Under the pieces are notes generated by a model. The model was given only the letters and a program-made list of their open reading frames with translations, ran no database searches and was not told where the DNA came from. From Candidatus Thorarchaeota archaeon SMTZ1-45 (GTDB taxonomy: Archaea; Asgardarchaeota; Thorarchaeia; Thorarchaeales; Thorarchaeaceae): DNA of 13,999 nucleotides. The stretch covers positions 1 through 13,999 of the forward strand of contig LRSL01000085.1 in assembly GCA_001563335.1 (NCBI GenBank). Reading direction: 5' to 3'. The stretch's first letter is position 1, and every line of letters starts with the position of its first letter. The position numbers were made by a program, and so were the translations under genes. Of the stretch, positions 285 to 13,999 are shown piece by piece.

Positions 285-1469
285 ATGATTGTCTTGATAA
301 AAGGAAGAGGAAAATCGCTGATTATCTTAGTCATTATTGGGCTTTTCGGATTCATGCCTAATGTACATCCGGACAGCTCTGTGCAAAATGTGTCTACGAG
401 TGCTCCCGATTATTGGCCAACGACTGGATGGCTCACTTCGACACCTGAAGAACAGGGAATGAACTCCAGTCTTCTTGATGAGTTTGTGGATGCGATAGAA
501 GATGTTTCTTTGCCGTTGCTTTCCTATCTTGTAATTAGAAATGGATACATTATCCTTGAAGGCTATCCAGATCCAGACTACAATGAGAGCACGCTAAAAC
601 ATGTCTGGTCGGTCACAAAAAGTTTCACGTCTGCTCTTGTAGGAATGGCACTTGGGGCGGGAGATCTCACAAGTCTTGATGAGTTGGTTGTCGATTTCTT
701 CCCTGATAAAACAATAGCTAATCTCGATGAGGACAAGCAATCCATAACAGTGGAGCATTTGCTTACAATGACAGCTGGATTCGAATGGTCCAGCGCCACC
801 GACCCTTCCGACATGATGGATAGTCCTGATTGGATTCAATATGTGTTGGATAAACCAATGGCAGATGTACCAGGTGAAACGTTTAACTACAACAGTGGAG
901 CCTCTCATCTTCTGTCCGCAATCGTCAACCGTACAACAGGAATTCCAACTCAGTCATATGCAGATACTTACTTGTTTCAACCACTTGGCATCTCAGATTA
1001 TGAATGGATAATTGACCCTCAAGGGGTTGCTTCTGGACACGCCGGTCTAAATATAACGCCCAGAGACATGGCGAAGTTTGGATTCCTCTATCTCAACAAT
1101 GGTACATGGGATGGCGAGCAGATTGTGCCTTCGACGTGGGTTTCCGCATCCACACAAGTGCAGGCTCCTGATGAGGACTATGGTTTTCAATGGTGGATAG
1201 ACCCAGAAAGAGATGCCTATTATGCATTTGGAAGAGATGGTCAGTATATTTGGGTACAACCTAAGAACGACTTGATTGTAGTGTTCACTGCTAGCGAGGG
1301 AATGTATTTGTCGTTGATTCCGTGGTACATTATTCCGGCTATACTTTCAACTCCAACACCGACGACTCCAATTTCACCCCCGCCAATAGATATGCGGATA
1401 ATAGGTCTAGTTGCGGGTGCAGCCGTTATTGTCGTTATCGTTCTTGAAGTATTCCGACGGCGAAGGTAG
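285..1469 (+). CDS. Secreted, membrane-anchored serine hydrolase, beta-lactamase class C / NylB-like family
   Basis: Catalytic SxxK (WSVTKS), YxN-like motif (FNYNSG), plus 'HLLTMTAG', 'RDMAKFGFLYLNNGTWDGEQIV' and 'YGFQWW' family motifs. Has an N-terminal hydrophobic signal, a Pro/Thr linker, a C-terminal TM helix and an RRRR tail. Confidence 0.9.
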   Translation: MIVLIKGRGKSLIILVIIGLFGFMPNVHPDSSVQNVSTSAPDYWPTTGWLTSTPEEQGMNSSLLDEFVDAIEDVSLPLLSYLVIRNGYIILEGYPDPDYNESTLKHVWSVTKSFTSALVGMALGAGDLTSLDELVVDFFPDKTIANLDEDKQSITVEHLLTMTAGFEWSSATDPSDMMDSPDWIQYVLDKPMADVPGETFNYNSGASHLLSAIVNRTTGIPTQSYADTYLFQPLGISDYEWIIDPQGVASGHAGLNITPRDMAKFGFLYLNNGTWDGEQIVPSTWVSASTQVQAPDEDYGFQWWIDPERDAYYAFGRDGQYIWVQPKNDLIVVFTASEGMYLSLIPWYIIPAILSTPTPTTPISPPPIDMRIIGLVAGAAVIVVIVLEVFRRRR

Positions 1470-1783: not shown

Positions 1784-4036
1784 ATGCCAAGGAAGAGTGG
1801 AGTCTTCTATGTTGTCTTGTCACTGGTATTCATCTTGGTGATAGGAATTGTCACGGCAGCCACTGATTCAGATGATAGTTACCAACTAACCCCAGTGAAT
1901 GTTTCAGAAATTGAGAAAGTGGATGTTACTGTAGCTAGTATGCCTCATGCCCCTATAGTCATTGATGGCGATGCAAACTTTACAGCAATAGCCTCAGCAG
2001 AGGGATGGGATGGTATTGGTTCTCCCAGTGACCCTTTTATAATAGAGAATCTAGATATTGACCTTGGCGGGAGCGAAGGCACCTGTATATTGATTAATAA
2101 CACACGGTCCCATTTCGTCATTCGTAACTGTGAAGTCCAAGCAGCAGACATCTATTTGACTGTAGGAATTCAGCTAGAGAACGTGACAGATGGGATCATA
2201 ATAAACAACCACATTCATGACAACACCCACGGAATTTTCGTTCACAGTGGGAGCACTAGAGTCACTATCTCCAGCAACAATATCTCCGATAATGTCTATC
2301 AAGGAATCCGCATTGATGTAAGCTCTACCTATGTCACAGTGGTAAACAATAACTGCTTGAATAATCAGTTGGGTGTCTACGTGTCATACTCAAACTACGT
2401 AATTATCGTCAATAACACCTTCAATAGAAACAAGGATCATGGAATCGTTGTAGCCTGGTCCCACAATAATACTATCAAAAATAATACCTGTGATGAGAAT
2501 CTTGATGAAGGAATATATCTCCATGAATCGTCTTCTAACACATTAACTAATAACATATGCACTAACAACCGATATGGCATTTACATCTATCTCTCAAATT
2601 CTAACAAAATATCAGAAAACATCTGCACTAGCAACAGTATTGGCATATATCTCACTCAATCAGATTCCAACACATTGGAAGACAACATCTGCGCTAGTAA
2701 CAGTAGCGACGGCATCTTTCTCTACGTATCGAGCTCCAATATGATAGCTAACAATACCTGCACTAGCAACAGATATGGCATCTGGATTCGCTATCATTCC
2801 AATTTCAATACTTTTGTCAATAACATATGTAACAACAACGATGTAGGCATTTATATCCACACAAATTCTGACAGCCATGAACTCCATTGGAATGTCTTAG
2901 CAGATAACAATCTTGATGGAAGAGATGATACAGGAACTAGTGATTTCAGTTACAATTACTGGTCAGATTATTCGGGAACTGACACAAATGGTGACGGTAT
3001 TGGTGATACTCCCTATGCATTTACAGGGAATTCTGATTTTTATCCATTGATGTATCAATCCAATCTTAGATGGATTAAGCCGCCAATGGACCAATCTATT
3101 GAGTTTGAGTATCTATTCCAATATGATATGGTCCTTGTCCAACATGGACCACTTGGACCACTTACATGGTCTATTAGCGACTCTATACATTTCAGTTGCA
3201 ATCAGGGTGTAGTTGAATCGAACACAATTCTGCCCAAAGGTGATTACGCATTGGAAGTGGATGTCACAAACTTCTACGGGTGTAGTCTCAGAGCAGCATT
3301 TACTGTCAGAGTTACAGTTGATGCCAGTAATCCGCCTGGATGGCTGACAATCCCCATTGATCAAGTGATAGTATATGGTGAAATGTTTGACTATCAGGTC
3401 ATGGTTGTGGACCCCTCAGGTATTGATCACTGGGAACTCAATGACACAGCTCATTTCGCCATTACTGAGAGTTATTACGTAGAAGGGAGTACAGCTCGTA
3501 TTACAAGCAGCTCAGACTTAGCAATAGGCCAATATGTATTAATCATAGATGTCTTTGATACATATGGCAATATGCTCTCGACTATCATCACCATAACTGT
3601 GGAGCCATCTGAACTAGACACCATACCACCTGAATGGGTGACCCTTCGTATTTACCAGACTATTGAAGTTGGTGAACCATTACAGATGCAACTTGAGGCT
3701 TGGGATTACGAGGGTATAGATCACTGGTGGCTCAATGACACAACACACTTCATGCTAGATGGACAGGGCGTCATCAGGAATGCTACAGTCCTCAATCCAG
3801 GCATTTACAGACTTGAGGTGAGAGCATACGATCCATATGATAACTATTGTTCTGCTGGCCTGGTCGTGACAGTTCTCGAAGCTCCAATGACCAAATCAAC
3901 AACCTCCACCACAACACCACCAACCATTAGTGCCATTCTTGAAGAAGTAGATTCAGTGATGATGCTTGTTCTGGGAGCAGGAATCGGAGGTGTTTCAGTG
4001 GTCGTCGTTGTACTAGTAATCCTAAGGAAGAAATAG
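1784..4036 (+). CDS. Surface protein with NosD/CASH right-handed parallel beta-helix, three Ig-like stalk modules and C-terminal TM anchor
   Basis: Signal peptide; 'HAPIVIDGDANF...GWDGIGSPSDPFIIENLDID' leader; ~22-aa GI(Y/F)L..S..N.I.NN.C..N repeats; 'NYWSDYSGTDTNGDGIGDTPY' NosD cap; three P.W...DQ modules; Thr-rich linker; TM helix plus RKK. GGAGG lies upstream. Confidence 0.88.
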   Translation: MPRKSGVFYVVLSLVFILVIGIVTAATDSDDSYQLTPVNVSEIEKVDVTVASMPHAPIVIDGDANFTAIASAEGWDGIGSPSDPFIIENLDIDLGGSEGTCILINNTRSHFVIRNCEVQAADIYLTVGIQLENVTDGIIINNHIHDNTHGIFVHSGSTRVTISSNNISDNVYQGIRIDVSSTYVTVVNNNCLNNQLGVYVSYSNYVIIVNNTFNRNKDHGIVVAWSHNNTIKNNTCDENLDEGIYLHESSSNTLTNNICTNNRYGIYIYLSNSNKISENICTSNSIGIYLTQSDSNTLEDNICASNSSDGIFLYVSSSNMIANNTCTSNRYGIWIRYHSNFNTFVNNICNNNDVGIYIHTNSDSHELHWNVLADNNLDGRDDTGTSDFSYNYWSDYSGTDTNGDGIGDTPYAFTGNSDFYPLMYQSNLRWIKPPMDQSIEFEYLFQYDMVLVQHGPLGPLTWSISDSIHFSCNQGVVESNTILPKGDYALEVDVTNFYGCSLRAAFTVRVTVDASNPPGWLTIPIDQVIVYGEMFDYQVMVVDPSGIDHWELNDTAHFAITESYYVEGSTARITSSSDLAIGQYVLIIDVFDTYGNMLSTIITITVEPSELDTIPPEWVTLRIYQTIEVGEPLQMQLEAWDYEGIDHWWLNDTTHFMLDGQGVIRNATVLNPGIYRLEVRAYDPYDNYCSAGLVVTVLEAPMTKSTTSTTTPPTISAILEEVDSVMMLVLGAGIGGVSVVVVVLVILRKK
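2340..2860 (+). repeat. Intragenic ~66-69 bp degenerate tandem repeats encoding beta-helix rungs
   Basis: Recurring aacat(a/c)tgc(a/g)cta(a/g)(c/t)aac...ggcat units near 2552, 2618, 2684 and 2753, with weaker copies on either side. Confidence 0.75.
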
Positions 4037-4076
4037 TGAGAAACGAGAAGCCATCCTAAAGAAGTATCCATTTGGA

Positions 4077-4562
4077 TTAACAAACAAAGGAGCGATAGTA
4101 TAACGAGTGTTGCAAGAACTTGATTTTGGAAACCTCGAGAAACTTTTGAACAGAATATTTGTAATATCGTGAAGACTCGTTGTCAATGGTTGTGAGCAGT
4201 GAGGGTTCTGGTTGGCTTCTAGCTTTTCTTCCTCCATTGAAGACTAACAGCCCTGGTAAAATACCACTCATCAACATCCCGATAATCCCTGTGACCGATA
4301 TCGCCTTTTGGAATCTGCCAGGATTGGTCGCAAGGATGAACCAGAGAAGCAGCAGAATCAACCCAATTAAGGCACCAAGAAAGAGGTAGGATGTTATTCC
4401 TCCCAACAGGGGGAGACTGGGGTCGTTGGGGTCGAGATTCATCCTAATCCCGTAGTCCAGCATGAAAATAATACCCAAGAGAGTTCGAAAGCTGCCGACG
4501 AAAAATTGAAGAACTGCCCCAGCAAGCACCCATTTACGAGCAGCTCCGGATCCCGCCATCAT
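4077..4562 (-). CDS. Small multi-pass membrane protein (3-4 TM, DUF4064-like)
   Basis: Hydrophobic helices ending in 'GILPGLLVFNGG'. A perfect GGAGGTGA RBS at 4566-4573 (minus) favours ATG 4562 or 4559 over TTG 4565. The family assignment is tentative. Confidence 0.7.
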   Translation of the reverse strand: MMAGSGAARKWVLAGAVLQFFVGSFRTLLGIIFMLDYGIRMNLDPNDPSLPLLGGITSYLFLGALIGLILLLLWFILATNPGRFQKAISVTGIIGMLMSGILPGLLVFNGGRKARSQPEPSLLTTIDNESSRYYKYSVQKFLEVSKIKFLQHSLYYRSFVC

Positions 4563-4629
4563 CAATCACCTCCAAGTATTGCTAAGGCTCTTTGACACCT
4601 TAGCTTAGATTATTATTATATCAAAGTTG

Positions 4630-4638
4630 AATATTAAG
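4630..4638 (-). promoter_or_regulatory. Candidate TATA box for the minus-strand membrane protein gene
   Basis: CTTAATATT on the minus strand, the same 9-mer found upstream of the tRNA-Asn gene (12979-12987). Confidence 0.4.
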
Positions 4639-4675
4639 GTTGAGTGCAGAATAGCATATATGAAAAGCTAATATA

Positions 4676-4691
4676 TTATTCATATGAATAA
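4676..4691. promoter_or_regulatory. Perfect 16-bp palindrome, candidate transcription-factor operator
   Basis: TTATTCATATGAATAA is self-complementary and lies between divergent promoters. ATTATTCATATGA (4675-4687) recurs at 220-232. Confidence 0.5.
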
Positions 4692-4716
4692 CTAAATAAT
4701 AAATTGAATGATATTG

Positions 4717-4727
4717 TTTATATAAAA
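4717..4727 (+). promoter_or_regulatory. Candidate TATA box for the LVIVD-repeat gene
   Basis: TTTATATAAAA matches the archaeal TTTAWAWA consensus in an AT-rich intergenic region. Confidence 0.5.
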
Positions 4728-4886
4728 CCTAATCAATTACTAATCGAAAGAAGCAGACTTGCGGTTTCGGGAGTGCCTTCAAAATCATTTAATCGAAAGA
4801 TGACTTGAGCATCAAATTACGTGTTTTTTCAGTTTGCTTCATTCAGTTATTCACAATTGTAGATAATATGGAGGAACAATTTAATC

Positions 4887-7178
4887 ATGAGGGAGAGCAA
4901 ATCAAATAGAGAGATTTTGCAGTTCAGGGCACTATTGCTCGTAGTCCTAATGACATTAATGATGTTTTGGACTGCACCACCGACAGCAGCCACAACCTAT
5001 CTCTACTATGAAGACTTTACAACAACAGCCTATATGGACACTACGAACTCAAATGTTACAGGCTGGGGCAAATATGATATTAAATTGCCTGGGGGAATGC
5101 CTTATGTAAGTGGTTTGTCTGGCGGGTATGTTGGATTCCAAGCTGTTGGGGACCTAGTCTATTGTGCAGATTTCTACTCAGGAACCCTCGATATAGTCAA
5201 TGTCAGTAATCCTCTTAACCCGTATATTATAGGGTATGTCAACGTTGGAGGACATCCTGTGAAAGTGGATGTTGACGGCGATTATGCATACGTTGCAGCG
5301 CTTGAAGAAGGACTCAAAGTCGTTGATGTCAGTAATAAAAGTAATCCGATAAAGGTGGGTGACACCTATCCAACTTACACTATTCCAGCCCATGATCTTG
5401 CAGTATCAGGCAACTATGTCTATATTGCGGGTCCGGAGCCCGGAGGTCTTATTACCATTGATGTGAGTGTAAAATCCAATCCTACTGCTGTTGACTACTA
5501 CTTAGGGGTAAGTCTTGCACGAATTGCAGTATCTGGTGGGTATGTTTACAGCGCTGGTTCCCCGACCCTACGCATTTTTGATTTGAGTGCACCAAACAAT
5601 CCCACCCCGCGCGGCTCCTGTACTTTAGCGGGTTCGGTGTCTGGGGGTATCGCAATTAGTGGAGGGTATGCATTCCTCGCGACTGAGGGCGGATTCCAAG
5701 TATCAGACATTACCAATCCTGATTCGCCCTCCATTGTTACTACCCATCCGTTAAGCGGAGAGGCACGAGCAGTAGCTGTCCAAGGAAACTATTCCTATGT
5801 GTGGAATAATGACTACGGTCTTGTAGCCTATAATATCACAATACCTACCAATCCCACTGTTGCTGGTGTTGGACCAGCAGGTTGGAATTATGCGACTTGG
5901 AACGGTATGGATGTTTGGGGTGATTTTGCGTATCTTGGTAATCGGGCGTCGTTACAAATTTGGAACATCTCCGATCCTCAGGTCTACGGATACCTTGGAG
6001 TTGGCCAATCCACTACCATTGATTCGTTTCCGAGTACCACCACAATTGTTCAGGCAACTCTGAACTCCACTTACATTCAACCTTCAGGCACCTCAATCGA
6101 TTTCTACCTATCAGCCGATAATGGATTACACTGGGAACAGGTCAATCTAGGAGTGGCACATGACTTCTCCGATCCAGGTCAAGACCTCAAATGGCGGGCA
6201 ATTCTCTCAACAACTGATAATCTCACAACACCAGAGATTGACACCTTAAGTATTTCATACAAGACCATTCTACAGTCACCCTCGCTCCTAGAACCCAGTG
6301 ATGCAGTATTGCTGCCTACTGCCACCCCCACATTGCACTGGGAGATAGTTCCTGGGACTGTGGAATATGTCATTGAGTTCGATACAGTATCGACATTTGA
6401 CTCACTGAATAAGTGGTCTGACACGACAACTCTGCTTAATTACACACCCTTGGCCCCATTGGCTGAAACGACATGGTACTGGCGAGTGGCTGCAAACGAT
6501 TCAGGTGGTGATCTGAGCGAGTTCTCCACTATCCGTAGTTTCACCATAGACATCTCTCCACCCACATGGGACCAGGCACCGACGAATCAGCTTGTCGAAT
6601 ACGGAGATGTCTTTTCATATGACTTAGATGCCTCTGATCCATCGGGCATCGACAGTTGGTGGCTTAATGATACAACGCACTTCTCAATAGATGGTTTTGG
6701 TGTAATTACAGACACGACAACATTGTCAGTGGGTGATTATGGGCTACAAGTATGGGTCAATGACTCACTCAATCACATCCTCACCACCACATTATCGATA
6801 AGTGTTCAAGATACAATCGACCCTGTATGGATTCAAACACCCACGGACCAGAGTCTTGAATATAACGAGTCCTTGGATTATCAATTACAGGCTAGTGATT
6901 TGTCAGGTATCGATCATTGGTGGTTAAATGACACAACGAATTTTGCCATATCGAGCGCAGGACGAATAACCAACAGTACGACATTGCTACCTGGAACCTA
7001 CGGAATAGAGGTCAGAGTCTACGATCCCTATAACAACTACTGCGTCGCTACATTTGTAGTCACTGTGGGAGAACTTCCAGCACAACCAGGTCCTCCATGG
7101 GTCTTTCTTACGATAGCAGCGATTAGCATCATTGGTGTCCTCGCGGTAGGGGTCTATATCGTGATGCAGAAAAGGTAG
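4887..7178 (+). CDS. Surface protein with LVIVD repeats (probable beta-propeller), FN3/Ig-like domain, two 'WWLNDT' stalk modules and C-terminal TM anchor
   Basis: Signal peptide; about six repeats of type 'V.V.GDYAYVA...GLKVVDVSN.SNP'; 'TWYWRVAANDSGG..SEFS' FN3-like strand; two 87-aa modules (starting 6549 and 6810); TM helix plus QKR. GGAGG RBS upstream. Confidence 0.88.
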   Translation: MRESKSNREILQFRALLLVVLMTLMMFWTAPPTAATTYLYYEDFTTTAYMDTTNSNVTGWGKYDIKLPGGMPYVSGLSGGYVGFQAVGDLVYCADFYSGTLDIVNVSNPLNPYIIGYVNVGGHPVKVDVDGDYAYVAALEEGLKVVDVSNKSNPIKVGDTYPTYTIPAHDLAVSGNYVYIAGPEPGGLITIDVSVKSNPTAVDYYLGVSLARIAVSGGYVYSAGSPTLRIFDLSAPNNPTPRGSCTLAGSVSGGIAISGGYAFLATEGGFQVSDITNPDSPSIVTTHPLSGEARAVAVQGNYSYVWNNDYGLVAYNITIPTNPTVAGVGPAGWNYATWNGMDVWGDFAYLGNRASLQIWNISDPQVYGYLGVGQSTTIDSFPSTTTIVQATLNSTYIQPSGTSIDFYLSADNGLHWEQVNLGVAHDFSDPGQDLKWRAILSTTDNLTTPEIDTLSISYKTILQSPSLLEPSDAVLLPTATPTLHWEIVPGTVEYVIEFDTVSTFDSLNKWSDTTTLLNYTPLAPLAETTWYWRVAANDSGGDLSEFSTIRSFTIDISPPTWDQAPTNQLVEYGDVFSYDLDASDPSGIDSWWLNDTTHFSIDGFGVITDTTTLSVGDYGLQVWVNDSLNHILTTTLSISVQDTIDPVWIQTPTDQSLEYNESLDYQLQASDLSGIDHWWLNDTTNFAISSAGRITNSTTLLPGTYGIEVRVYDPYNNYCVATFVVTVGELPAQPGPPWVFLTIAAISIIGVLAVGVYIVMQKR

Positions 7179-7211
7179 GAACCCTAAAAATGGGTTCCCT
7201 CTTCTTTTTTT
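7178..7211 (+). terminator. Hairpin plus U-tract terminator
   Basis: GGAACCC-TAAAAAT-GGGTTCC (7178-7198) followed by CTCTTCTTTTTTT, directly at the stop codon. Confidence 0.7.
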
Positions 7212-7473
7212 ATAACATTACTTCATTTTTGTAAGCCTTAATCATTGGAAAAGACCAGTTTGAATTGCATAAATGGACCCTACAATTGGTAAAAGGGGTT
7301 CTATAATTCCTTAAAATAACGCTATTCCCTTAAGAAGCCCAATAATCCAATCGCACAGGTTATGGTCCCGAATCTCAATCATATAGAAGACAGAATTCAA
7401 TCTCACTATCTCTACAAAGGGTTTTGGATATATTTTCACTTTTCTTGGACACAGTCTGAAGAAGGTAGAGGTC

Positions 7474-10200
7474 GTGTTTGCATCATTGTTTGGTGAGTTC
7501 CAGGTGGGAGCTGTAGAAGTGGTCGAGATTCCAGAGGACTATCTCAAGATACTAGACAAAGAGAATCAGGATGCCAACTATAGACAATCGTTCAAGAACA
7601 TCCTCAGAGGAGTGATTTATGCTGAGGTGCCAGTGGGACTTCGACTTGAGCGTATTAAAGGAAGAACTAGAGTATTTTTTCTGACTTGGACTCGAAAACA
7701 GGATGAGCTAAGCAGGAACCTCACCACTCTCACCACATCAGTTTCTGCATACCTGCCGAAGTTCATCTTAACATCAGCCAAGACATTCAAGGGACTGAGA
7801 GCAGGTCCAGAAGTCAACGGAGTCATAGCCTGTCTACTGGGAGAACCTGCAACTCAAGAGGAGATTGAACATAGCTCGGTTCGGATAGAACCGATGGATG
7901 CCGCTGGTGAGGTGCTTCAGAGTCTTGACAATGTCATCGTTCAGGTCTTTGTAGAACCAACAAAGTCAGGAAGGGGACATGTCAGATCTCTCGAGCGTGC
8001 GTATGAGAATGCTGTGGAACGGTCACAAAAGGTCGTATCGGGACCTAGACATTTCTCCCAAAAATCACAGCAATCAACCACTATTGTGAATGCAAGCGCC
8101 TCTAGAGAAGCCGAACGTCTTAGCAGACATGTCAAGCGCATGAGCAGTCGGTATCTCGGGAAGGTCTCAGTGACCATCACTCACTGGCATCCGAACCTAA
8201 GACTCGCCAAAACGCAGGCCAAGCGTGTGATGTCTGTCCTCATGAGTGGAGTCACACCTGCTGACAAGGAGGAGGACCTTTGTGTAAAAATCAAGACCAA
8301 ACGTAAGGATTTCGAGAAGGCTCTGGCGGGCAAACCCGTTGGTGACCACACAATCCTCACTCCAGACGAGGCTGCAATCTATTTTGCACTGCCAAAGGTG
8401 GACCTTGGTATCAAGGTTTCTCGACGGGAAGACTTCTCTGCTGCCAGTGTTGACCTGTCAGAAACAGAGAGAACAGGAGAAACGAATCCTCAACCAGAGT
8501 CCAAACAAGAATTGAACAGTCCGAAAAACATGTTTCTGGAAAATGAGCAGTGGAACCATCAAGACTCTAAGCCAGACTGGCGATCCCCACACAAGAAACT
8601 CATCCAGCTTGGTCTTGTGATACGGAATGGTGTGCCTCAACAATATCAGCCCTATGGACTGGTTCCAAAGATGCTCGGGTCACACATTGCAGTCTATGGG
8701 AATACAGGATACGGTAAGACCACGACTTGCGTCAGTCTTGTTGCGCAGGCGTATAGAAATGATGTCATTCCCATCATCCTTACACCTGGAAATGTCGGAG
8801 ATTGGCGAGTTCTAAAAGACCTCTATCCTGAGTTTCGGATCTTCACTGCTGGAAACCCAGACATCGCGCCTCTCCGATACAACATGTGGAATGTCCCACC
8901 AAAGGTCCCGGTTGGAAAATACATCGACAGGATGGTGGATGTTCATGTGGCTGCGCTTCCCACAGATGGTGTCATCTCCATGCACTTTGATGACATCTTC
9001 AACACCATGTATGAGAACTGCGGATGGTCGCGCATGGGGAATATTCGAGGACGCTCTATCCTGCTCTCTGATCTCTATCAGGCCTTTCAGCAGGTCGTGC
9101 AGACCCACCTAGAATACGGTGAGGACCTCAAGAAGGACTTCTACGGGGCGCTTGATGCACGACTCAGGAGTATGCTCAGAAACGAGATTCTGGTGGACAT
9201 GTTCAACACAACCACGGGACTGACGATTCCCGACCTTCTCTCCGAACCCACCATCATCGAGATGCGGGACCTCTCGCCAGAGGACCGGGCACTCCTAATT
9301 GGTGCGCTTACCGTGGGGATAAGTGAGTATTTGATCGCGAATCCAAAGAAGGAGGTGCGTCATCTCCTTGTCTTGGAGGAGGCGCATCAGTTCCTCAAGA
9401 GAGCGCAGAACCAGGGGGCGTACGCTGAGCCAACCTCCACGCAGAAGGCCATCTCCAACATCTGCGAGATGATGCGGATTCAAAGAGGTACAGGGTTGGG
9501 GTTCGTCATCATTGACCAGCTTGTGAGCAGCCTGCCTCCTGAGATAGTCAAGCTTCCCTCCAATATCATCATCCACACGCTGACAGACCTTGAGGAACGT
9601 GTGCTGGCGGGTCGACAGGCGCTGTGCAGTGACGCGCAGATTAGCCACATTGGTGGGATGGGCATTGGTGAGGTTGTCGCACGGGTCCAGACTCAGACAG
9701 TGCCTGCGAACGTCCAGATTGCGCCCCTGAACTACCTGCTCACAAGGTCGTTGCCGGAGAGGGAGTGGACCGATGAGATGGTGAGAGATGCCATGCTGGA
9801 GGTGTTCGCTGCTCATCCTGAGCTTGCAGAGAGTCGGCCCCTCACTTCCGAGATGAGGGACCTGCTTCGGGGCATCAGGTCGCCTCCGAAGCTCTCAGTG
9901 CAGCCTGAGATGCAGGTCATTCAGATCTCGAGGCGGCATGAGGTTGACATCTCGGAGATCGTCAACGAGCCGCTCTTTGTCAATGAGTACAAGAAACGGA
10001 TGGGGTCAGCCTCGAGAGGGAACCCAGGTCCAGTGGCTAGACTGTTGAATACTGTTGCAGGGAGGTTCTGTTCCAAGGATTTTGAGCGGGTGCCCTTCGC
10101 TGAGCGGCTGCTGCTCCATGCTGCGGGAATGCTGCAGGAACCCAGGGAGACCGCTGTGCTTGCGGACATCTTGTTGGCCATCAGGGGTGTGGATGCGTAG
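7474..10200 (+). CDS. HerA/FtsK/VirB4-superfamily (DUF87-like) P-loop ATPase with long N-terminal extension
   Basis: Walker A HIAVYGNTGYGKTT (~8683-8724), Walker B LLVLEEAH (~9364-9387), arginine finger and conserved Gln in 'MMRIQRGTGLGFVIIDQ', and a helical insert between the Walker motifs. GTG start. Confidence 0.88.
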   Translation: MFASLFGEFQVGAVEVVEIPEDYLKILDKENQDANYRQSFKNILRGVIYAEVPVGLRLERIKGRTRVFFLTWTRKQDELSRNLTTLTTSVSAYLPKFILTSAKTFKGLRAGPEVNGVIACLLGEPATQEEIEHSSVRIEPMDAAGEVLQSLDNVIVQVFVEPTKSGRGHVRSLERAYENAVERSQKVVSGPRHFSQKSQQSTTIVNASASREAERLSRHVKRMSSRYLGKVSVTITHWHPNLRLAKTQAKRVMSVLMSGVTPADKEEDLCVKIKTKRKDFEKALAGKPVGDHTILTPDEAAIYFALPKVDLGIKVSRREDFSAASVDLSETERTGETNPQPESKQELNSPKNMFLENEQWNHQDSKPDWRSPHKKLIQLGLVIRNGVPQQYQPYGLVPKMLGSHIAVYGNTGYGKTTTCVSLVAQAYRNDVIPIILTPGNVGDWRVLKDLYPEFRIFTAGNPDIAPLRYNMWNVPPKVPVGKYIDRMVDVHVAALPTDGVISMHFDDIFNTMYENCGWSRMGNIRGRSILLSDLYQAFQQVVQTHLEYGEDLKKDFYGALDARLRSMLRNEILVDMFNTTTGLTIPDLLSEPTIIEMRDLSPEDRALLIGALTVGISEYLIANPKKEVRHLLVLEEAHQFLKRAQNQGAYAEPTSTQKAISNICEMMRIQRGTGLGFVIIDQLVSSLPPEIVKLPSNIIIHTLTDLEERVLAGRQALCSDAQISHIGGMGIGEVVARVQTQTVPANVQIAPLNYLLTRSLPEREWTDEMVRDAMLEVFAAHPELAESRPLTSEMRDLLRGIRSPPKLSVQPEMQVIQISRRHEVDISEIVNEPLFVNEYKKRMGSASRGNPGPVARLLNTVAGRFCSKDFERVPFAERLLLHAAGMLQEPRETAVLADILLAIRGVDA

Positions 10201-10208
10201 GGGGGCGT

Positions 10209-12221
10209 ATGATGGAGGGCATGTCTGGGGAGAAGATGAGGCGACGACGGAGAGAGTATAGTGAGGAGGAGGACACCCGTGCCGAGGACATGAGCGCTTC
10301 TGAGGAGGGTCGGAGGAGGATTGGGGCACGCGAGGCGAGAGCGGAGAGTTCTGAGTCTGATGAGGTGGGAGAGGTCTCAGTCAGCGAGGTGGTGAGGCAC
10401 GCTATCGAGAAACTGCGGGAGAATGAGGTAGAAGAGGGCGATATTTCGCGTAGGGTGGAGGATGCTCTTGAGGAACTGGAGAGGATGGAGCAAGCCAGCG
10501 AGTCAGCCAAGGAGAAGATCAGGGATGCTCTGGAGAGTCTTGATGAACAGGAAAAAAAGAACGTCGTTATCGAAGAAGCGGAGGACATTGAGAGAGGTGA
10601 GCGTGTTAAGGATGTTGAGAAGACAACCACTATAGAGATTGAGAAGAGCCTTGAGAGAAACGAAAACCAAGATCTATCGAGAGAAACACCCTCCCGAATT
10701 CAAGAGTTGGATGAGAGTTGGGTGAAAGATGTTCTTTCAGAGTTTGATTCTAAAGAGTGGAACCAAGAGAATCTTGCTGCACAGCTAATGGAGATCAGTG
10801 ATAATCTGCCGGATACATCAAGAACGTTCTATATCGATGTTGAAAAAAGTCTGGGTATATCAGCAGAGGAACTCGACTCATTCAAACAGGCATTTCATCA
10901 GGTGAGAGAAGGTCTCGATGAGGTCGAGAGGGTTCGATTTGGGCTGGCTGGGGAGAGGCTCTACGTATGGAGACCAGATTTCGACTCAACCAGTTTAGAA
11001 AAGGTCTATGATAGTTTATACTATTACTTCCGCGATAAGGAAGCGTTTGACAGGTATATTGATGATGTTGGGGAATCTCTGGGGTTTCAAGAAAAAAGAA
11101 ACGGCGATATTCTGAAGTATCTACGAGAGCTGGCTTTTCAGATGGTCGTGGAAGACTCAAGGGATTACTGTATCAACCCTCAAATTTGTCGAATTCGCGG
11201 GGATTTCATTAACCTGATGAATGACATCTCAGGTAAGACACTCTCGGGCTTGGAGGGCGAGATTTCGAAAGTTACAGGACCTAGTGGAAGGGGAGGGATT
11301 GAAAGACCACTCTTTCCCCATGGAGAAAAGCTTGAAGTGGCAGTGGCACGTCTCGTGGCAGCTGTGCTTTCAGATGGCAGTGTTCAACCAAATGGTGGTG
11401 TACAATATGCAGAGTCTGAGATGAGCCGAATTGAGAGAGTCGTAGAGAGTTTGAGAGTCTTTGGGGATATCAATCTATCAATAAAACACATTGAAAGGGA
11501 GAATTACTATCGAACACACTTTCCTTCTGTCATCGGAAAACTGCTGATGCATAGAGAAGTTCCATCGGGCGATAGAACTATTCAGAATCCAAGACTCAGT
11601 ACATGTGTCAGAGAGGGGACTGATGAGGTCAAACGGGCATACATCGAGGACTTCATACCTCAAGATGCGTGTGTTGGAAAAAACAAAGTGATATGGCATC
11701 GAGCTAACGTTCTAGATGCCGGAGATAAGTCTAAGAAATATGGGCTGGAACCAAAGATCGGCATTGAGGAAAAGGTCCTAATTATGGAATATGGAAGAAG
11801 AGAACGAGGAAATGCAAAAGCATATGCTCTTTCTTGGGGGAAGCTGGAGGAACTAACACACCATCCAGATGTAACAACAACTCGTATTGCTAGGAGTCTA
11901 GAATGTGTTGGCTTTGATAATCCAAACAGACTCATGGATGATGAAGCAGAGATAATGCAAGGCTGGGGTATCAAGGTAAAAGTTGAGCCATCAGTCATTC
12001 GATATTATTCTGGGACTGGGAGAGTGACAATTACATGGCAAGCAAGAACGGTTGGGTTAGTAAATACAATTGAACTTTGTATAGTTGCTCCACCAAACGA
12101 TATTAAGAATAAGCAAAAAGCAAAGATTCTGGTTTCTGAACATCGTGAAGAATTGAAAGAAGCAGTGAGGTGTTTAAAAAGCAATAACATTGAATATAGG
12201 ATATGGTGGGATGGATCATGA
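10209..12221 (+). CDS. Protein with Glu/Arg-rich N-terminus and C-terminal LAGLIDADG (DOD-type) endonuclease-like domain
   Basis: Motif 1 'ARLVAAVLSDGSV' (~11345-11384) and motif 2 'CVREGTDEVKRAYIEDFIPQDACV' (~11604-11675), about 95 aa apart, resemble intein blocks C and E. No Hint/splicing motifs seen. The ORF is certain; the domain call is moderate. Confidence 0.65.
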   Translation: MMEGMSGEKMRRRRREYSEEEDTRAEDMSASEEGRRRIGAREARAESSESDEVGEVSVSEVVRHAIEKLRENEVEEGDISRRVEDALEELERMEQASESAKEKIRDALESLDEQEKKNVVIEEAEDIERGERVKDVEKTTTIEIEKSLERNENQDLSRETPSRIQELDESWVKDVLSEFDSKEWNQENLAAQLMEISDNLPDTSRTFYIDVEKSLGISAEELDSFKQAFHQVREGLDEVERVRFGLAGERLYVWRPDFDSTSLEKVYDSLYYYFRDKEAFDRYIDDVGESLGFQEKRNGDILKYLRELAFQMVVEDSRDYCINPQICRIRGDFINLMNDISGKTLSGLEGEISKVTGPSGRGGIERPLFPHGEKLEVAVARLVAAVLSDGSVQPNGGVQYAESEMSRIERVVESLRVFGDINLSIKHIERENYYRTHFPSVIGKLLMHREVPSGDRTIQNPRLSTCVREGTDEVKRAYIEDFIPQDACVGKNKVIWHRANVLDAGDKSKKYGLEPKIGIEEKVLIMEYGRRERGNAKAYALSWGKLEELTHHPDVTTTRIARSLECVGFDNPNRLMDDEAEIMQGWGIKVKVEPSVIRYYSGTGRVTITWQARTVGLVNTIELCIVAPPNDIKNKQKAKILVSEHREELKEAVRCLKSNNIEYRIWWDGS

Positions 12222-12793
12222 AGGACTTTGAGAATGAATGTGCTGATGAACTTCTGAAAATACTGGAGAAAGCTGGGAAAAAGGGTATTCAATTGGGATT
12301 GGTGAAGAAGGACTTGCGTAAGCATCTGAGAAATCTGGCAAAGAAAGAACAGGATTTAGCAATTGAAGCATCTATAAAACATGTGTTGGATGAATGGCGA
12401 GCTATCAAAATTGTAGATGAAGATGCTAGCTCAGAACTTACTTGGTATTTGAAGTATCTAACCGAGGAGGAATCTAAGCGATTCCGAGAGCTGTCTGAGG
12501 TGGACCAGATGTTGTTGAGAATCCTTTTTGACTTTGAGGGGGGATTTCAACCAGGGGCAATGAAGAAGGATGAAGCTATAAAGAAACTTCGTGAATTAGG
12601 TTTTAGTTTGGAGGATATTAATGTCATTCCTGGAATTGTAAGTAAAACCCGTGTTCCTGATGATGATGGCATGCAAATGTGGGTGTACATAATACCCCAG
12701 TATGAGTTCTCTGAGGAGTATAAAGCTCTTCAAGAAGAGTCTCTTGAAAAGTCGCGGAAACGTGAGGAACGGATGATGCGGGAATCTGATTAA
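12218..12793 (+). CDS. Hypothetical 191-aa protein, putative tandem winged-helix fold
   Basis: ATG at 12218 overlaps the upstream TGA (ATGA, 12218-12221), a better start than 12203. Two helix-helix-helix-wing-like segments ('DELLKILEKAGKKGIQLGLVKKDL...' and 'LSEVDQMLLRILF...MKKDEAIKKLRELGF'). The fold is inferred. Confidence 0.65.
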   Translation: MKDFENECADELLKILEKAGKKGIQLGLVKKDLRKHLRNLAKKEQDLAIEASIKHVLDEWRAIKIVDEDASSELTWYLKYLTEEESKRFRELSEVDQMLLRILFDFEGGFQPGAMKKDEAIKKLRELGFSLEDINVIPGIVSKTRVPDDDGMQMWVYIIPQYEFSEEYKALQEESLEKSRKREERMMRESD

Positions 12794-12846
12794 CCCTATG
12801 GAAAATTAGCTATTGTTAAAAAGCGCCGCCGGGAGGGCTCGAACCT

Positions 12847-12876
12847 TTAGCCGTACGTCACGAATTGTGACGCACT
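12847..12876 (-). other. Non-canonical tRNA intron, 30 nt, at position 50/51 (T-stem)
   Basis: BHB-like geometry: central helix GGUC/GGCU, bulges GG^A and AA^A, intron helix GUGCGUCAC/GUGACGUAC. Cleavage after the second bulge base restores the T-stem GGAGG. Confidence 0.85.
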
Positions 12877-12889
12877 CCGACCAACAACT

Positions 12890-12917
12890 GTCTGGCTCTC
12901 AACCAGTGGGTGAGAGA
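12890..12917 (-). other. Canonical tRNA intron, 28 nt, at position 37/38
   Basis: Bulges UA^U and AC^A, intron helix CUCUCA/UGAGAG, central helix CUGU/CCAG (one U:C mismatch). Confidence 0.88.
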
Positions 12918-12978
12918 TAACAGGCTGTCGCTCTACCTACTGAGCCACGGCGGCTGTTCGGCTCAGGTCGTGGGTTTC

Positions 12979-12987
12979 AATATTAAG
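12979..12987 (-). promoter_or_regulatory. TATA box of tRNA-Asn
   Basis: CTTAATATT lies 25-33 nt upstream of tRNA position 1. Confidence 0.6.
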
Positions 12988-13009
12988 ATTGCTGTTGAGC
13001 TTTGTTTTA

Positions 13010-13024
13010 CTACTGGCGGCGCCA
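13010..13024 (+). repeat. 15-bp direct repeat, copy 1 (tRNA-3'-end-like)
   Basis: CTACTGGCGGCGCCA is identical to 13813-13827; 18/19 match when extended left (TTT[A/G]). Confidence 0.8.
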
Positions 13025-13095
13025 ATCTTTTTAGAACTATTGTCTGGAAACTATAATATCGGTTCAGGTTCTAGTAAGTATGGGAGGACAAGAGT

Positions 13096-13728
13096 GTGAA
13101 GATTGAGGTCGACCCATCTGATTTGGAATGGGGGACTTACTACATTGATGAAAAATGCAAGGAATTAGAGAGAGTCCTTCGGGGGGACTCGAGATATGCG
13201 GAATGCGAGGTGAAACGTCTATATTCCGGAGATGAGAACTTTGACCCGTTTCATGTATTGGATGAGAATGGAAAGGGGATTGTTATGCTTGAGAGATGGG
13301 AAGTCGACGCATTGAGTGGTGCTGAGCTCATCACATACATCGAAGTTCAACGAAGACAAAATCAAATCCCAAACTGGGTGGAACCAGTGTTACTTGGGTT
13401 GTCCATGGGGTCTCTTGGAGTGGCGGTAGCTAGCTCAATACTTGCGTATTTTTTTCATCAGGATTCATCGTCACCGGTTTGGTTTATGGTGCAGAATCAG
13501 GGATGGTTCTATCTTCTCGCGCTTATTCTGGGCACTCTCTGCTTTTTGAAGTACAGAAGTACAGAACAACGGAAGAAGAATGTTGATTTGGAGGCAACAA
13601 GAGCTGACCCCTTGTTTCGTGATGTGCTGCAAAAACTCGCGGACCAGCCTGAAACTGAGAATCCTAGTAAGAAAAAATACGTGAAGAGATTAGAGAAAAT
13701 TAAAGATACATTTGCAGGTATCAATTGA
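13096..13728 (+). CDS. Hypothetical membrane protein (2 TM)
   Basis: GTG start with GGAGG RBS (13083-13087); acidic soluble N-terminal domain, two hydrophobic helices, basic C-terminal tail. No family recognised. Confidence 0.75.
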   Translation: MKIEVDPSDLEWGTYYIDEKCKELERVLRGDSRYAECEVKRLYSGDENFDPFHVLDENGKGIVMLERWEVDALSGAELITYIEVQRRQNQIPNWVEPVLLGLSMGSLGVAVASSILAYFFHQDSSSPVWFMVQNQGWFYLLALILGTLCFLKYRSTEQRKKNVDLEATRADPLFRDVLQKLADQPETENPSKKKYVKRLEKIKDTFAGIN

Positions 13729-13812
13729 TGTCACCAGCAACGTCACATCTGTTACCGTCTTAGAACAATTATCGACTGGTCCCAAGTCCAGATGTCCATG
13801 CATCAACCTTTG

Positions 13813-13827
13813 CTACTGGCGGCGCCA
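13813..13827 (+). repeat. 15-bp direct repeat, copy 2 (tRNA-3'-end-like)
   Basis: CTACTGGCGGCGCCA is identical to 13010-13024. Confidence 0.8.
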
Positions 13828-13897
13828 CTTCTTCCCTTGGTCTGTCAATCATAGCTGGAGAGTGAGTGAAGCAGGCGGATCTCAACCATCATCTCCG

Positions 13898-13999
13898 CTA
13901 GACTGGTTTGATTTTATACTCGAATTTCAATGACTGGATATTTTTGATTAATCTCAATGCAGGGTTACCGTCTTGCCAGCATGGTTTTCGGAGGGAATG
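13898..13999 (-). CDS. Possible C-terminus of a minus-strand gene running in from the right edge
   Basis: Open frame HSLRKPCWQDGNPALRLIKNIQSLKFEYKIKPV* ending at TAG 13900-13898. Too short to identify. Confidence 0.25.
   Translation of the reverse strand, partial: HSLRKPCWQDGNPALRLIKNIQSLKFEYKIKPV

Follow-up and report, generated by a model that had tools for sequence, protein, structure and literature searches.

An ATPase gene followed by exchangeable LAGLIDADG or HNH-NUMOD3 partner genes in Asgard archaea suggests an undescribed conflict or DNA-transfer system

The sequence analysed here, referred to as the window, is a whole contig of 13,999 bases (C85; LRSL01000085.1) from the genome of the Asgard archaeon Candidatus Thorarchaeota archaeon SMTZ1-45 (3.5 Mb, 88% complete). 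Its central feature is a module of three open reading frames (ORFs) arranged head to tail on the + strand: an ATPase gene at 7474-10200 (908 residues, GTG start), a nuclease gene at 10209-12221 (670 residues) and a gene for a small winged-helix (WH) protein at 12218-12793 (191 residues, or 196 when read from the ATG at 12203). Eight bases separate the ATPase stop at 10200 from the nuclease ATG at 10209, and the start of the WH gene overlaps the nuclease stop within the ATGA at 12218-12221. An earlier note on this DNA, made from the letters alone, had described three co-oriented genes with this spacer and overlap, bounded by a terminator on the left and by the 3' end of a tRNA on the right, and each of these features was found. 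The left boundary is a terminator-like hairpin on the + strand (7178-7198) with a T run extending to 7210, which closes an upstream LVIVD-repeat gene. The right boundary is a tRNA gene with two insertions on the - strand (12824-12954; Rfam RF00005, 35.8 bits against a gathering score of 29), the 3' end of which faces the operon 31 bases past the last stop codon.

Judged by its sequence, the product of the first gene is a P-loop ATPase of the HerA/FtsK superfamily, which bears out the HerA-type motor named in the earlier note. The protein matches the Pfam DUF87/HerA central domain (PF01935) with E 7e-8 and 33.3 bits (cut-off 23.2), and a conservation profile divides it into a family-specific N-terminal domain (approximately residues 1-380), a core (approximately residues 390-790) and a variable C-terminal part of about 110 residues. 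The Walker A motif GNTGYGKTT (residues 409-417; 8698..8724, + strand) retains G409, G414 and K415 in 51 of 51 family members, as does the Walker B motif LLVLEEAHQF (residues 631-640; 9364..9393, + strand) an acidic residue at E/D635 and the glutamate E636. Orthologues of the window ATPase are 54-83% identical to it, and those with a name all come from Thorarchaeota or Promethearchaeota. The closest solved sequences are 8j4u, 8su9 and 8uae (E 1.3e-5 over residues 594-749), entries named "Nucleoside triphosphate hydrolase" that we take to be Sir2-HerA or DUF4297-HerA. The NCBIfam HerA equivalogs score 14.3-25.1 bits against cut-offs of 800-850, which does not place the protein among the orthologues of HerA proper, and there is no NurA-like neighbour in the window, nor Mre11 or Rad50 nearby. 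Weak NCBIfam matches were also obtained to CedD (E 4e-9), TraD (7e-4) and EssC, and relatives of the window ATPase match TrwB_AAD_bind and the TraG P-loop weakly; all of these lie far below the family cut-offs.

Membrane segments were sought with a Kyte-Doolittle scan, a crude method compared with dedicated predictors. At least two hydrophobic segments were detected within the first ~130 residues of 34 of the 51 family ATPases, most family members having three or four, while the window ATPase and its clade of ~905-residue proteins have none. The window protein thus appears to be a soluble derivative of a mostly membrane-anchored family.

The second gene encodes a protein of two parts. The N-terminal part (residues 1-229; 10209..10895, + strand) is charged and of low complexity, as the earlier note had remarked, with 48 acidic and 29 basic residues among the first 150; it begins with the leader MMEGMSGEKMRRRRREY, which paralogues and orthologues also carry. 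Over the region 9500-13000 of the window the GC skew is strongly positive (0.23-0.35), with a GC peak of 0.58 near the ATPase-nuclease junction, a profile that fits the purine-rich Glu and Arg codons of this charged tether. The conserved C-terminal part (residues 230-670; 10896..12218, + strand) comprises an N-terminal subdomain and a double-LAGLIDADG fold at approximately residues 372-643. A structure model of residues 230-670, built from 30 diverse relatives, reached a predicted local distance difference test score (pLDDT) of 90.0 and a predicted template modelling score (pTM) of 0.88. Its first LAGLIDADG-type helix (residues 373-389; 11325..11375, + strand; model helix 144-160) ends in Asp389, which is kept in 30 of 30 relatives, and the second (residues 472-486; 11622..11666, + strand; model helix 243-257) ends in Asp486, a position occupied by D in 26 and by E in 4 of the 30.

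All ten Foldseek matches to the nuclease model at E <= 0.001 are LAGLIDADG endonucleases, and the lower matches listed are further LAGLIDADG endonucleases together with WhiA. Structural alignment with VIA-align gave a Z of 17.6 to PI-PfuI (185 residues, 2.6 Å), 16.5 to I-Tsp061I (183 of 204 residues), 15.4 to I-DmoI (~170 of 190 residues) and 15.4 to WhiA. Profile comparison (hhalign) to the Pfam-positive LAGLIDADG_3 domains of other partner proteins returned a probability of 78% and E 1.8e-5 with both motifs in register. PF14528 matched 5 of the 30 nuclease relatives weakly (best E 2.8e-4), and the ESM Atlas structural neighbours of a 41%-identical homologue of the window nuclease are LAGLIDADG_3 clusters. 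Direct searches of Pfam, NCBIfam, PADLOC and PHROGs with the 670-residue protein found no match, the nuclease-domain profile yielded nothing better than E 0.24 among PDB sequences, and the viral structures similar to the domain are only inteins and free-standing LAGLIDADG enzymes. In the model, residues 230-670 fold as a complete monomeric double-LAGLIDADG endonuclease with the catalytic aspartate pair intact, and by type of fold the protein is a predicted site-specific DNA cutter. The stand-alone LAGLIDADG C-terminus proposed by the earlier note is therefore upheld by the fold comparisons (Z 15-17.6); the gene is a free-standing ORF within an operon, not lodged in an intron or intein, and carries a 230-residue N-terminal part that is not endonuclease.

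According to its model (pLDDT 90.8), the small protein (12218..12793, + strand) is a tandem winged-helix protein with two WH domains and a C-terminal helix, in agreement with the winged helix-turn-helix partner of the earlier note. Residues 1-82 match the WHB domain of cullins and the WH domain of RPA32 (Z ~10), and residues 86-161 match a LOTUS/WH domain. The Foldseek list is headed by the tandem-WH proteins Nse3, ScpB and Rpc34, at TM scores of only 0.22-0.27 (Nse3, ScpB), and the window contains no SMC or kleisin gene. Searches with the WH protein returned nothing in NCBIfam or PHROGs and only PbeC, at E 0.012, in PADLOC, and Pfam scans of 15 members of its family gave scattered single matches. 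Among its homologues of at least 150 residues, 20 of 20 are encoded directly after a nuclease gene of this family. The L062 locus has two tandem WH genes and, some 3.6 kb beyond them, an 88-residue third fragment (10290-11575 and 15158-15424, + strand; the two genes encode 196 and 232 residues).

We next consider how widely the module occurs. The nuclease domain matches 302 cluster representatives (50%-identity clusters, E <= 0.001), and in full-length matches the conserved domain lies at the C-terminal end, behind 20 to ~1,100 variable residues. The best relative of the window protein is 56% identical to it, and named relatives all belong to Thorarchaeota, Promethearchaeota or Sifarchaeia. 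The family is present in 71 of 400 Asgard genomes: 51 of 85 in the window's own taxonomic family, 13 of 19 and 3 of 3 in two other families, and 17 of 27 in its own genus. A genome usually has several copies, together with fragments and with copies that contain in-frame stops; many of them are located at the ends of contigs. Members of the ATPase family occur in 53 of the 400 genomes (E <= 1e-20). Reach outside the phylum was gauged from a pattern scan of GTDB species only, which yielded 6 close loci, all from Thorarchaeota or Promethearchaeota, and does not establish absence outside Asgard.

Linkage between the genes was examined in the DNA flanking 40 places anchored on the nuclease, 29 anchored on the ATPase and 9 in which both were already evident; because anchors were chosen on the nuclease, the ATPase or both, these samples are not unbiased. 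For the ATPase-anchored count, the best 45 matches in the 400 Asgard genomes were used, of which 30 had a readable downstream gene, the rest being contig ends or not fetched. In 25 of these 30 the downstream gene belongs to the present nuclease family; two others encode 7-8 NUMOD3 motifs plus an HNH domain, one encodes helix-turn-helix (HTH) arrays plus a Pfam-positive LAGLIDADG_3, one HTH arrays alone and one a large protein of 1,898 residues and unrecognised type (L087). Weaker ATPase relatives add LAGLIDADG_3 and HTH-array partners, including one at the C109 locus of the genome studied here. The gap between ATPase and partner is mostly -20 to +11 nucleotides. Many contigs of metagenome-assembled genomes (L085, L093, L095, L098, L099, L100 and others) break off no more than a few bases from the ATPase gene's 3' end, the point at which the variable partner gene begins, as would be expected if the next gene were hypervariable or repeated. 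Counted from the nuclease side, 57 genes of at least 400 residues comprised 14 with both neighbours, 11 with the ATPase only, 1 with the WH gene only, 15 with neither and 16 that could not be judged; the WH gene was thus absent from 11 of the 25 judgeable ATPase-linked loci. Solo nuclease genes lie beside those for ribosomal protein L2, archease, formyltransferase (FTR) and STT3. This neighbourhood survey recovered the same gene order across Thorarchaeota-type Asgard genomes, the recurrence for which the earlier note had proposed to look, and the same-order co-occurrence of the three genes in other genomes is far beyond chance.

The window's own genome contains five related loci (the window, C42, C109, C69a and C69b), with three ATPase paralogues, each of which has its own partner. 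At C42 a membrane-type ATPase precedes a nuclease, and at C109 a membrane-type ATPase precedes a LAGLIDADG_3 protein of 1,231 residues. The other two loci are remnants: at C69a only the last ~140 nucleotides of the ATPase gene are left before the nuclease and WH genes, and at C69b the upstream region and the first ~85 nucleotides of the ATPase gene are joined to its last ~47 nucleotides, followed by the nuclease gene. Since the ATPase ORF was deleted at C69b, at least some solo nuclease copies derive from operons.

Across 120 pairs from 16 loci, the identity of the ATPases shows no correlation with that of the nuclease domains (Spearman 0.08), and ATPase clades only 29-40% identical to each other still keep the pairing with a partner. 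Two pairs of loci make the exchange visible. The ATPases of L073 and L074 are 94% identical and their nuclease domains 47%; at the DNA level, identity is 92.8% over the ATPase gene and the first ~290 nuclease codons, then collapses, and returns to 93% downstream, in a chromosomal locus that is syntenic between species. The sole large insertion or deletion that distinguishes the two loci lies just downstream of the swapped nuclease and contains a gene for a NucC-like PD-(D/E)xK nuclease (L074 10425-11363, - strand). Between L059 and L062, synonymous divergence (dS) is 0.175 for the ATPase, 0.159 for the N-terminal part of the nuclease, 0.737 for its C-terminal domain and 1.25 for the WH gene. 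This jump inside the operon indicates that an older allele took the place of the nuclease domain and WH gene jointly, whereas the N-terminal part of the partner tracks the ATPase in recombination. In addition, residues 111-722 of the 1,898-residue L087 partner are 78% identical to the N-terminal part of nuclease L115, while the C-terminus differs. The swapped C-termini for which the earlier note had suggested searching are thus present.

A tree of the nuclease domains shows solo copies intermingled with ATPase-linked ones. Wherever the ratio dN/dS could be calculated, for solo copies as well, it is 0.09-0.40, which indicates that the proteins are kept by selection; for the swapped 3' part of the L073/L074 nuclease dS is saturated and gives no value. 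A similar Gly/Glu/Arg-rich leader heads partners of different nuclease types, its pattern occurring in 22 of 43 partners and in 5 of 175 other ORFs, although the pattern was defined after looking at the proteins and is a lead, not a test. Identity of WH proteins against that of nuclease domains gave a Spearman coefficient of 0.20 over 36 pairs, in which identities are saturated and hence uninformative. For the window itself, contigs from four metagenome runs, compared with positions 5000-13999, carry the same allele at low depth in all four, with no alternative cassette or informative joint in the operon, minor variants being invisible in contigs.

The earlier note had not recognised the combination, and no PADLOC, NCBIfam or PHROG model describes the trio. 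In PADLOC-DB 2.0 the window ATPase matches only the generic mad8 (best) and HerA models at 18-42 bits, and the database holds no model for a system with this nuclease or WH protein, so that the module is not assigned to any known anti-phage system. In random control regions of the window's own genome (L131, L133) mad3 and mad8 match ordinary ABC-type ATPases with E down to 2e-55; a mad8 match alone is therefore uninformative about defence. Defence genes adjoin some modules, namely a short prokaryotic Argonaute (pAgo) with an Aga-REase at L059, SIR2 at L101, a NucC-like gene at L074 and a DrmC-like phospholipase D (PLD) gene at L045. The L059 pair (2257-5251, - strand; PADLOC pAgo_I, E 1e-130, and an Aga-REase/APAZ partner) follows directly after the WH gene.

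Among the matches listed by full-text literature searches, none described the pairing of a HerA-type ATPase and LAGLIDADG or NUMOD3-HNH proteins in Asgard archaea. The words HerA and LAGLIDADG are absent from the main texts of a survey of Asgard defence (PMC11291487) and of a survey of archaeal immunity (PMC12988326), and excerpts from a Heimdallarchaeum mobile-element paper mention only a homing endonuclease of the rRNA-intron type, in an unrelated 8-kb element. A related theme comes from a study by the Aravind laboratory (Nucleic Acids Research 2024; PMC10853773), the main text of which lacks the word LAGLIDADG. It puts forward for bacterial anti-invader systems a combination of a HerA/FtsK ATPase, an endoDNase, an HTH and a rapidly evolving protein with multiple winged HTH (wHTH) domains, and it proposes that HerA/FtsK "capture" systems and DndFGH pump invader DNA to a restriction head.

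Taken together, the module is a chromosomal system of Asgard (Thorarchaeota-type) archaea that combines an active-looking, ring-type ATPase with a downstream polymorphic endonuclease of a sequence-specific type, and the window carries the variant in which the ATPase is soluble and a WH partner is present. Nuclease alleles that are old and can be exchanged, the existence of several modules in parallel within one genome and a patchy spread point to a DNA-targeting conflict function, either restriction-like defence against foreign DNA or strain discrimination, a reading for and against which we consider the scales about evenly balanced. By analogy, likeness to the HerA-effector defence complexes and to the HerA/FtsK "capture" theme, as the latter is set out in the main text of PMC10853773, would favour such a conflict system. 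What the data above show are the protein folds, the conservation of catalytic and Walker residues, the arrangement of the genes, the replacement of cassettes and purifying selection; beyond these we infer the following scheme for physical docking, DNA translocation, cleavage specificity and biological role. The leader and charged tether would attach the nuclease to the ring of the ATPase; this motor would then translocate or present double-stranded DNA; and the nuclease would cut this DNA at sites set by the LAGLIDADG saddle, with HTH or NUMOD arrays contributing to site recognition in longer relatives. Because the WH gene and the nuclease domain move together as a single recombination cassette, the WH protein most likely tunes or restrains its nuclease, as a specificity or inhibitor subunit.

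Several observations weigh against a conflict function. In the window, the module is flanked by a tRNA and by surface proteins (beta-lactamase-fold, NosD/beta-helix and LVIVD), with no defence genes among these neighbours, and PADLOC matches (E <= 1e-5) were obtained for 9 of 90 ORFs flanking the loci and for 5 of 90 random ORFs of the same genome, two indistinguishable counts. The membrane anchors of most family ATPases suit a membrane pump for DNA or protein no less than they suit a restriction motor in the cytoplasm. Domains of the homing-endonuclease type are classic selfish genes, and 15 of 41 judgeable nuclease genes have neither an ATPase nor a WH neighbour and lie among housekeeping genes, which indicates that the nuclease can persist alone.

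These points bear on the alternatives. The strongest of them, although unlikely in our view, is DNA transfer or uptake, in which the ATPase would be a VirB4/CedB/TraD-like pump, the nuclease would act in the manner of a relaxase by nicking or cutting a cognate site, the WH protein would be an accessory DNA binder, and swaps would change which DNA is mobilised. The hydrophobic N-terminal segments of the 34 family ATPases and the sequence-specific types of the nucleases suit such a role, as do the weak similarities to CedD, TraD, TrwB_AAD_bind and the TraG P-loop, but these NCBIfam and Pfam matches all fall far short of the family cut-offs, and the window ATPase and its clade have no hydrophobic segment. 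Genes for a pilin, a channel, an integrase or replication were not seen next to any of the modules examined; the L073/L074 locus is chromosomal and syntenic; and one genome maintains three ATPase paralogues with a partner each. LAGLIDADG enzymes, moreover, cut both DNA strands and are not known to pass through a covalent intermediate of the relaxase type. Ranked behind transfer, and improbable as we see it, is a host machine in which a HerA/VirB4-like motor with interchangeable homing-endonuclease heads would cut, mobilise or gene-convert chromosomal DNA between cells or alleles independently of a relaxase, the solo genes serving as a cassette reservoir.

Export of polymorphic toxins comes after these and seems quite improbable. 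An ATPase like EssC of type VII secretion would here read the leader and export nuclease toxins with variable C-termini, and the WH protein would provide immunity. The layout is indeed like that of polymorphic toxins, with a constant N-terminal part of the partner and recombining, variable C-terminal effector domains, and it may resemble essC variant modules; the nuclease C-domain and WH gene are replaced together, the WH gene occurs only directly after a nuclease (20 of 20), the 3' end of the ATPase gene and the partner leader are duplicated together, and most family ATPases are membrane-anchored. However, 11 of the 25 judgeable ATPase-linked loci have no WH gene, the WH protein has a fold of the DNA-binding type, and homing-endonuclease types with HTH or NUMOD3 arrays are sequence-specific and not indiscriminate. 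No signal peptide, channel, trafficking domain or other secretion gene was found, and the window ATPase is soluble. The earlier note had offered toxin/immunity export or a translocase-nuclease unit for defence or mobility as explanations: a strict toxin-immunity pair is weakened by the missing WH genes, and export is weakened for the window copy by an ATPase without a membrane segment. Least probable of all, to our mind, is that selfish homing genes with no functional tie to the ATPase home downstream of its gene and elsewhere, allele replacement then being the outcome of competing homing. LAGLIDADG and HNH plus NUMOD3 are domain types of homing endonucleases, solo copies sit between housekeeping genes, alleles are replaced within conserved flanks, and the spread is patchy and multi-copy with fragments and in-frame stops, all as this explanation would have it. 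Against it, a large partner follows the ATPase in 30 of 30 readable cases, tightly spaced or overlapping; leader and N-terminal modules are common to partners of different nuclease types; the N-terminal part of the partner is co-inherited with the ATPase; and even ATPase clades of 29-40% mutual identity keep pairing. The C69b solo copy arose by deletion of an ATPase ORF and not by insertion, and known homing genes have, to our knowledge, neither a long charged tether nor a WH partner. Of these readings we prefer that of a DNA-targeting conflict system.

The surroundings of the module in the window have features of their own. An ARAGORN scan of the window found no tRNA, probably because of the two insertions in the gene at 12824-12954. 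Relative to the Rfam model these are 29 nucleotides after the anticodon-loop region and 39 nucleotides in the T arm, and they are probably two introns. An element integrated at the tRNA was considered and rejected for the window: no direct repeat of the tRNA end or att-like repeat was present in 6900-13999, and no integrase was found. Beyond the tRNA, 13096-13728 (+ strand) encodes a protein of 210 residues with two hydrophobic helices. Its family is divergent and multi-copy, being present in 16 of 28 genomes of the genus at no more than 47% identity over full-length matches, and it occurs near the ATPase-nuclease module in three loci (the window, L045 and L067). Purely as speculation, it is conceivable that ATPases of the soluble clade are anchored to the membrane through this protein. 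To the left of the module, 1784-4036 and 4887-7178 (+ strand) encode two large surface-type proteins, with NosD/beta-helix repeats in one and LVIVD repeats in the other; both end in repeated modules with a common 'GIDHWWLNDTTHF'-like motif and a C-terminal hydrophobic anchor, and these repeat ends look like a shared, undescribed C-terminal repeat domain. Further upstream, 285-1469 (+ strand) encodes a beta-lactamase-fold protein (serine hydrolase) that has a hydrophobic segment at its N-terminus and whose C-terminal anchor ends in RRRR.

Eukaryotes have no closer known relatives than the Asgard archaea, yet what is known of conflict and DNA exchange in these archaea comes mostly from homology to bacterial systems alone. 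The module described here is lineage-specific, abundant in its clade, and recruits normally selfish homing-endonuclease domains as the exchangeable end of an ATPase machine. Should it prove to be a defence system, it would represent a new effector class and a new way to diversify specificity for HerA-type systems; should it serve transfer, it would bear on the movement of DNA in archaea without relaxases. We note that the high-confidence models and naturally diverse LAGLIDADG scaffolds may also interest engineers of meganucleases.

Comparison with known systems places each component beside a familiar relative. The nuclease shares with the monomeric archaeal homing endonucleases I-DmoI and I-Tsp061I and with the endonuclease domain of the intein PI-PfuI its fold over ~165-185 residues (root-mean-square deviation 2.4-2.9 Å) and two LAGLIDADG helices with acidic ends, but differs from them in its 230-residue charged N-terminal part, an extra N-terminal subdomain and insertions, in its position in an operon between ATPase and WH genes, and in lying below Pfam detection. 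The fold match to WhiA, a LAGLIDADG scaffold that serves as a transcription factor, is as strong as that to active enzymes; WhiA is not known to have the catalytic acidic residues, whereas the acidic pair is kept in 30 of 30 nuclease relatives. The small protein has a tandem WH architecture, and a kinship with the kite proteins (ScpB, Nse3/MAGE), which partner SMC-kleisin complexes, is a bare possibility at the low Foldseek TM scores given above. The side-by-side ATPase and nuclease genes, and the idea of a ring translocase feeding DNA to a nuclease, recall archaeal HerA-NurA; here, however, the nuclease partner is polymorphic, and the module occurs patchily and in multiple copies, not universally. 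The membrane ATPases VirB4/VirD4/CedB of DNA transfer and EssC of type VII secretion belong to the same ATPase superfamily and resemble most relatives in their N-terminal hydrophobic segments, unlike the soluble window ATPase, next to which no other transfer or secretion genes were seen and whose matches to these families are far below cut-offs. The bacterial HerA-effector defence complexes contain the nearest solved relative of the ATPase, and in them an ATPase ring likewise works with an adjacently encoded effector; the similarity is at superfamily level only (PADLOC HerA models 18-34 bits), the effector is another one, and most relatives of the present ATPase are membrane-anchored. Finally, the HerA/FtsK "capture" systems and DndFGH, as presented in the main text of PMC10853773, likewise unite a HerA/FtsK-class ATPase with an active endoDNase and an HTH, and some of their operons include a protein bearing 2-4 wHTH domains. 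Those systems are bacterial and use nucleases of the restriction endonuclease (REase) fold, often fused in one polypeptide, whereas the module described here, in Asgard archaea, employs a separate, cassette-swapped LAGLIDADG or HNH-NUMOD3 protein.

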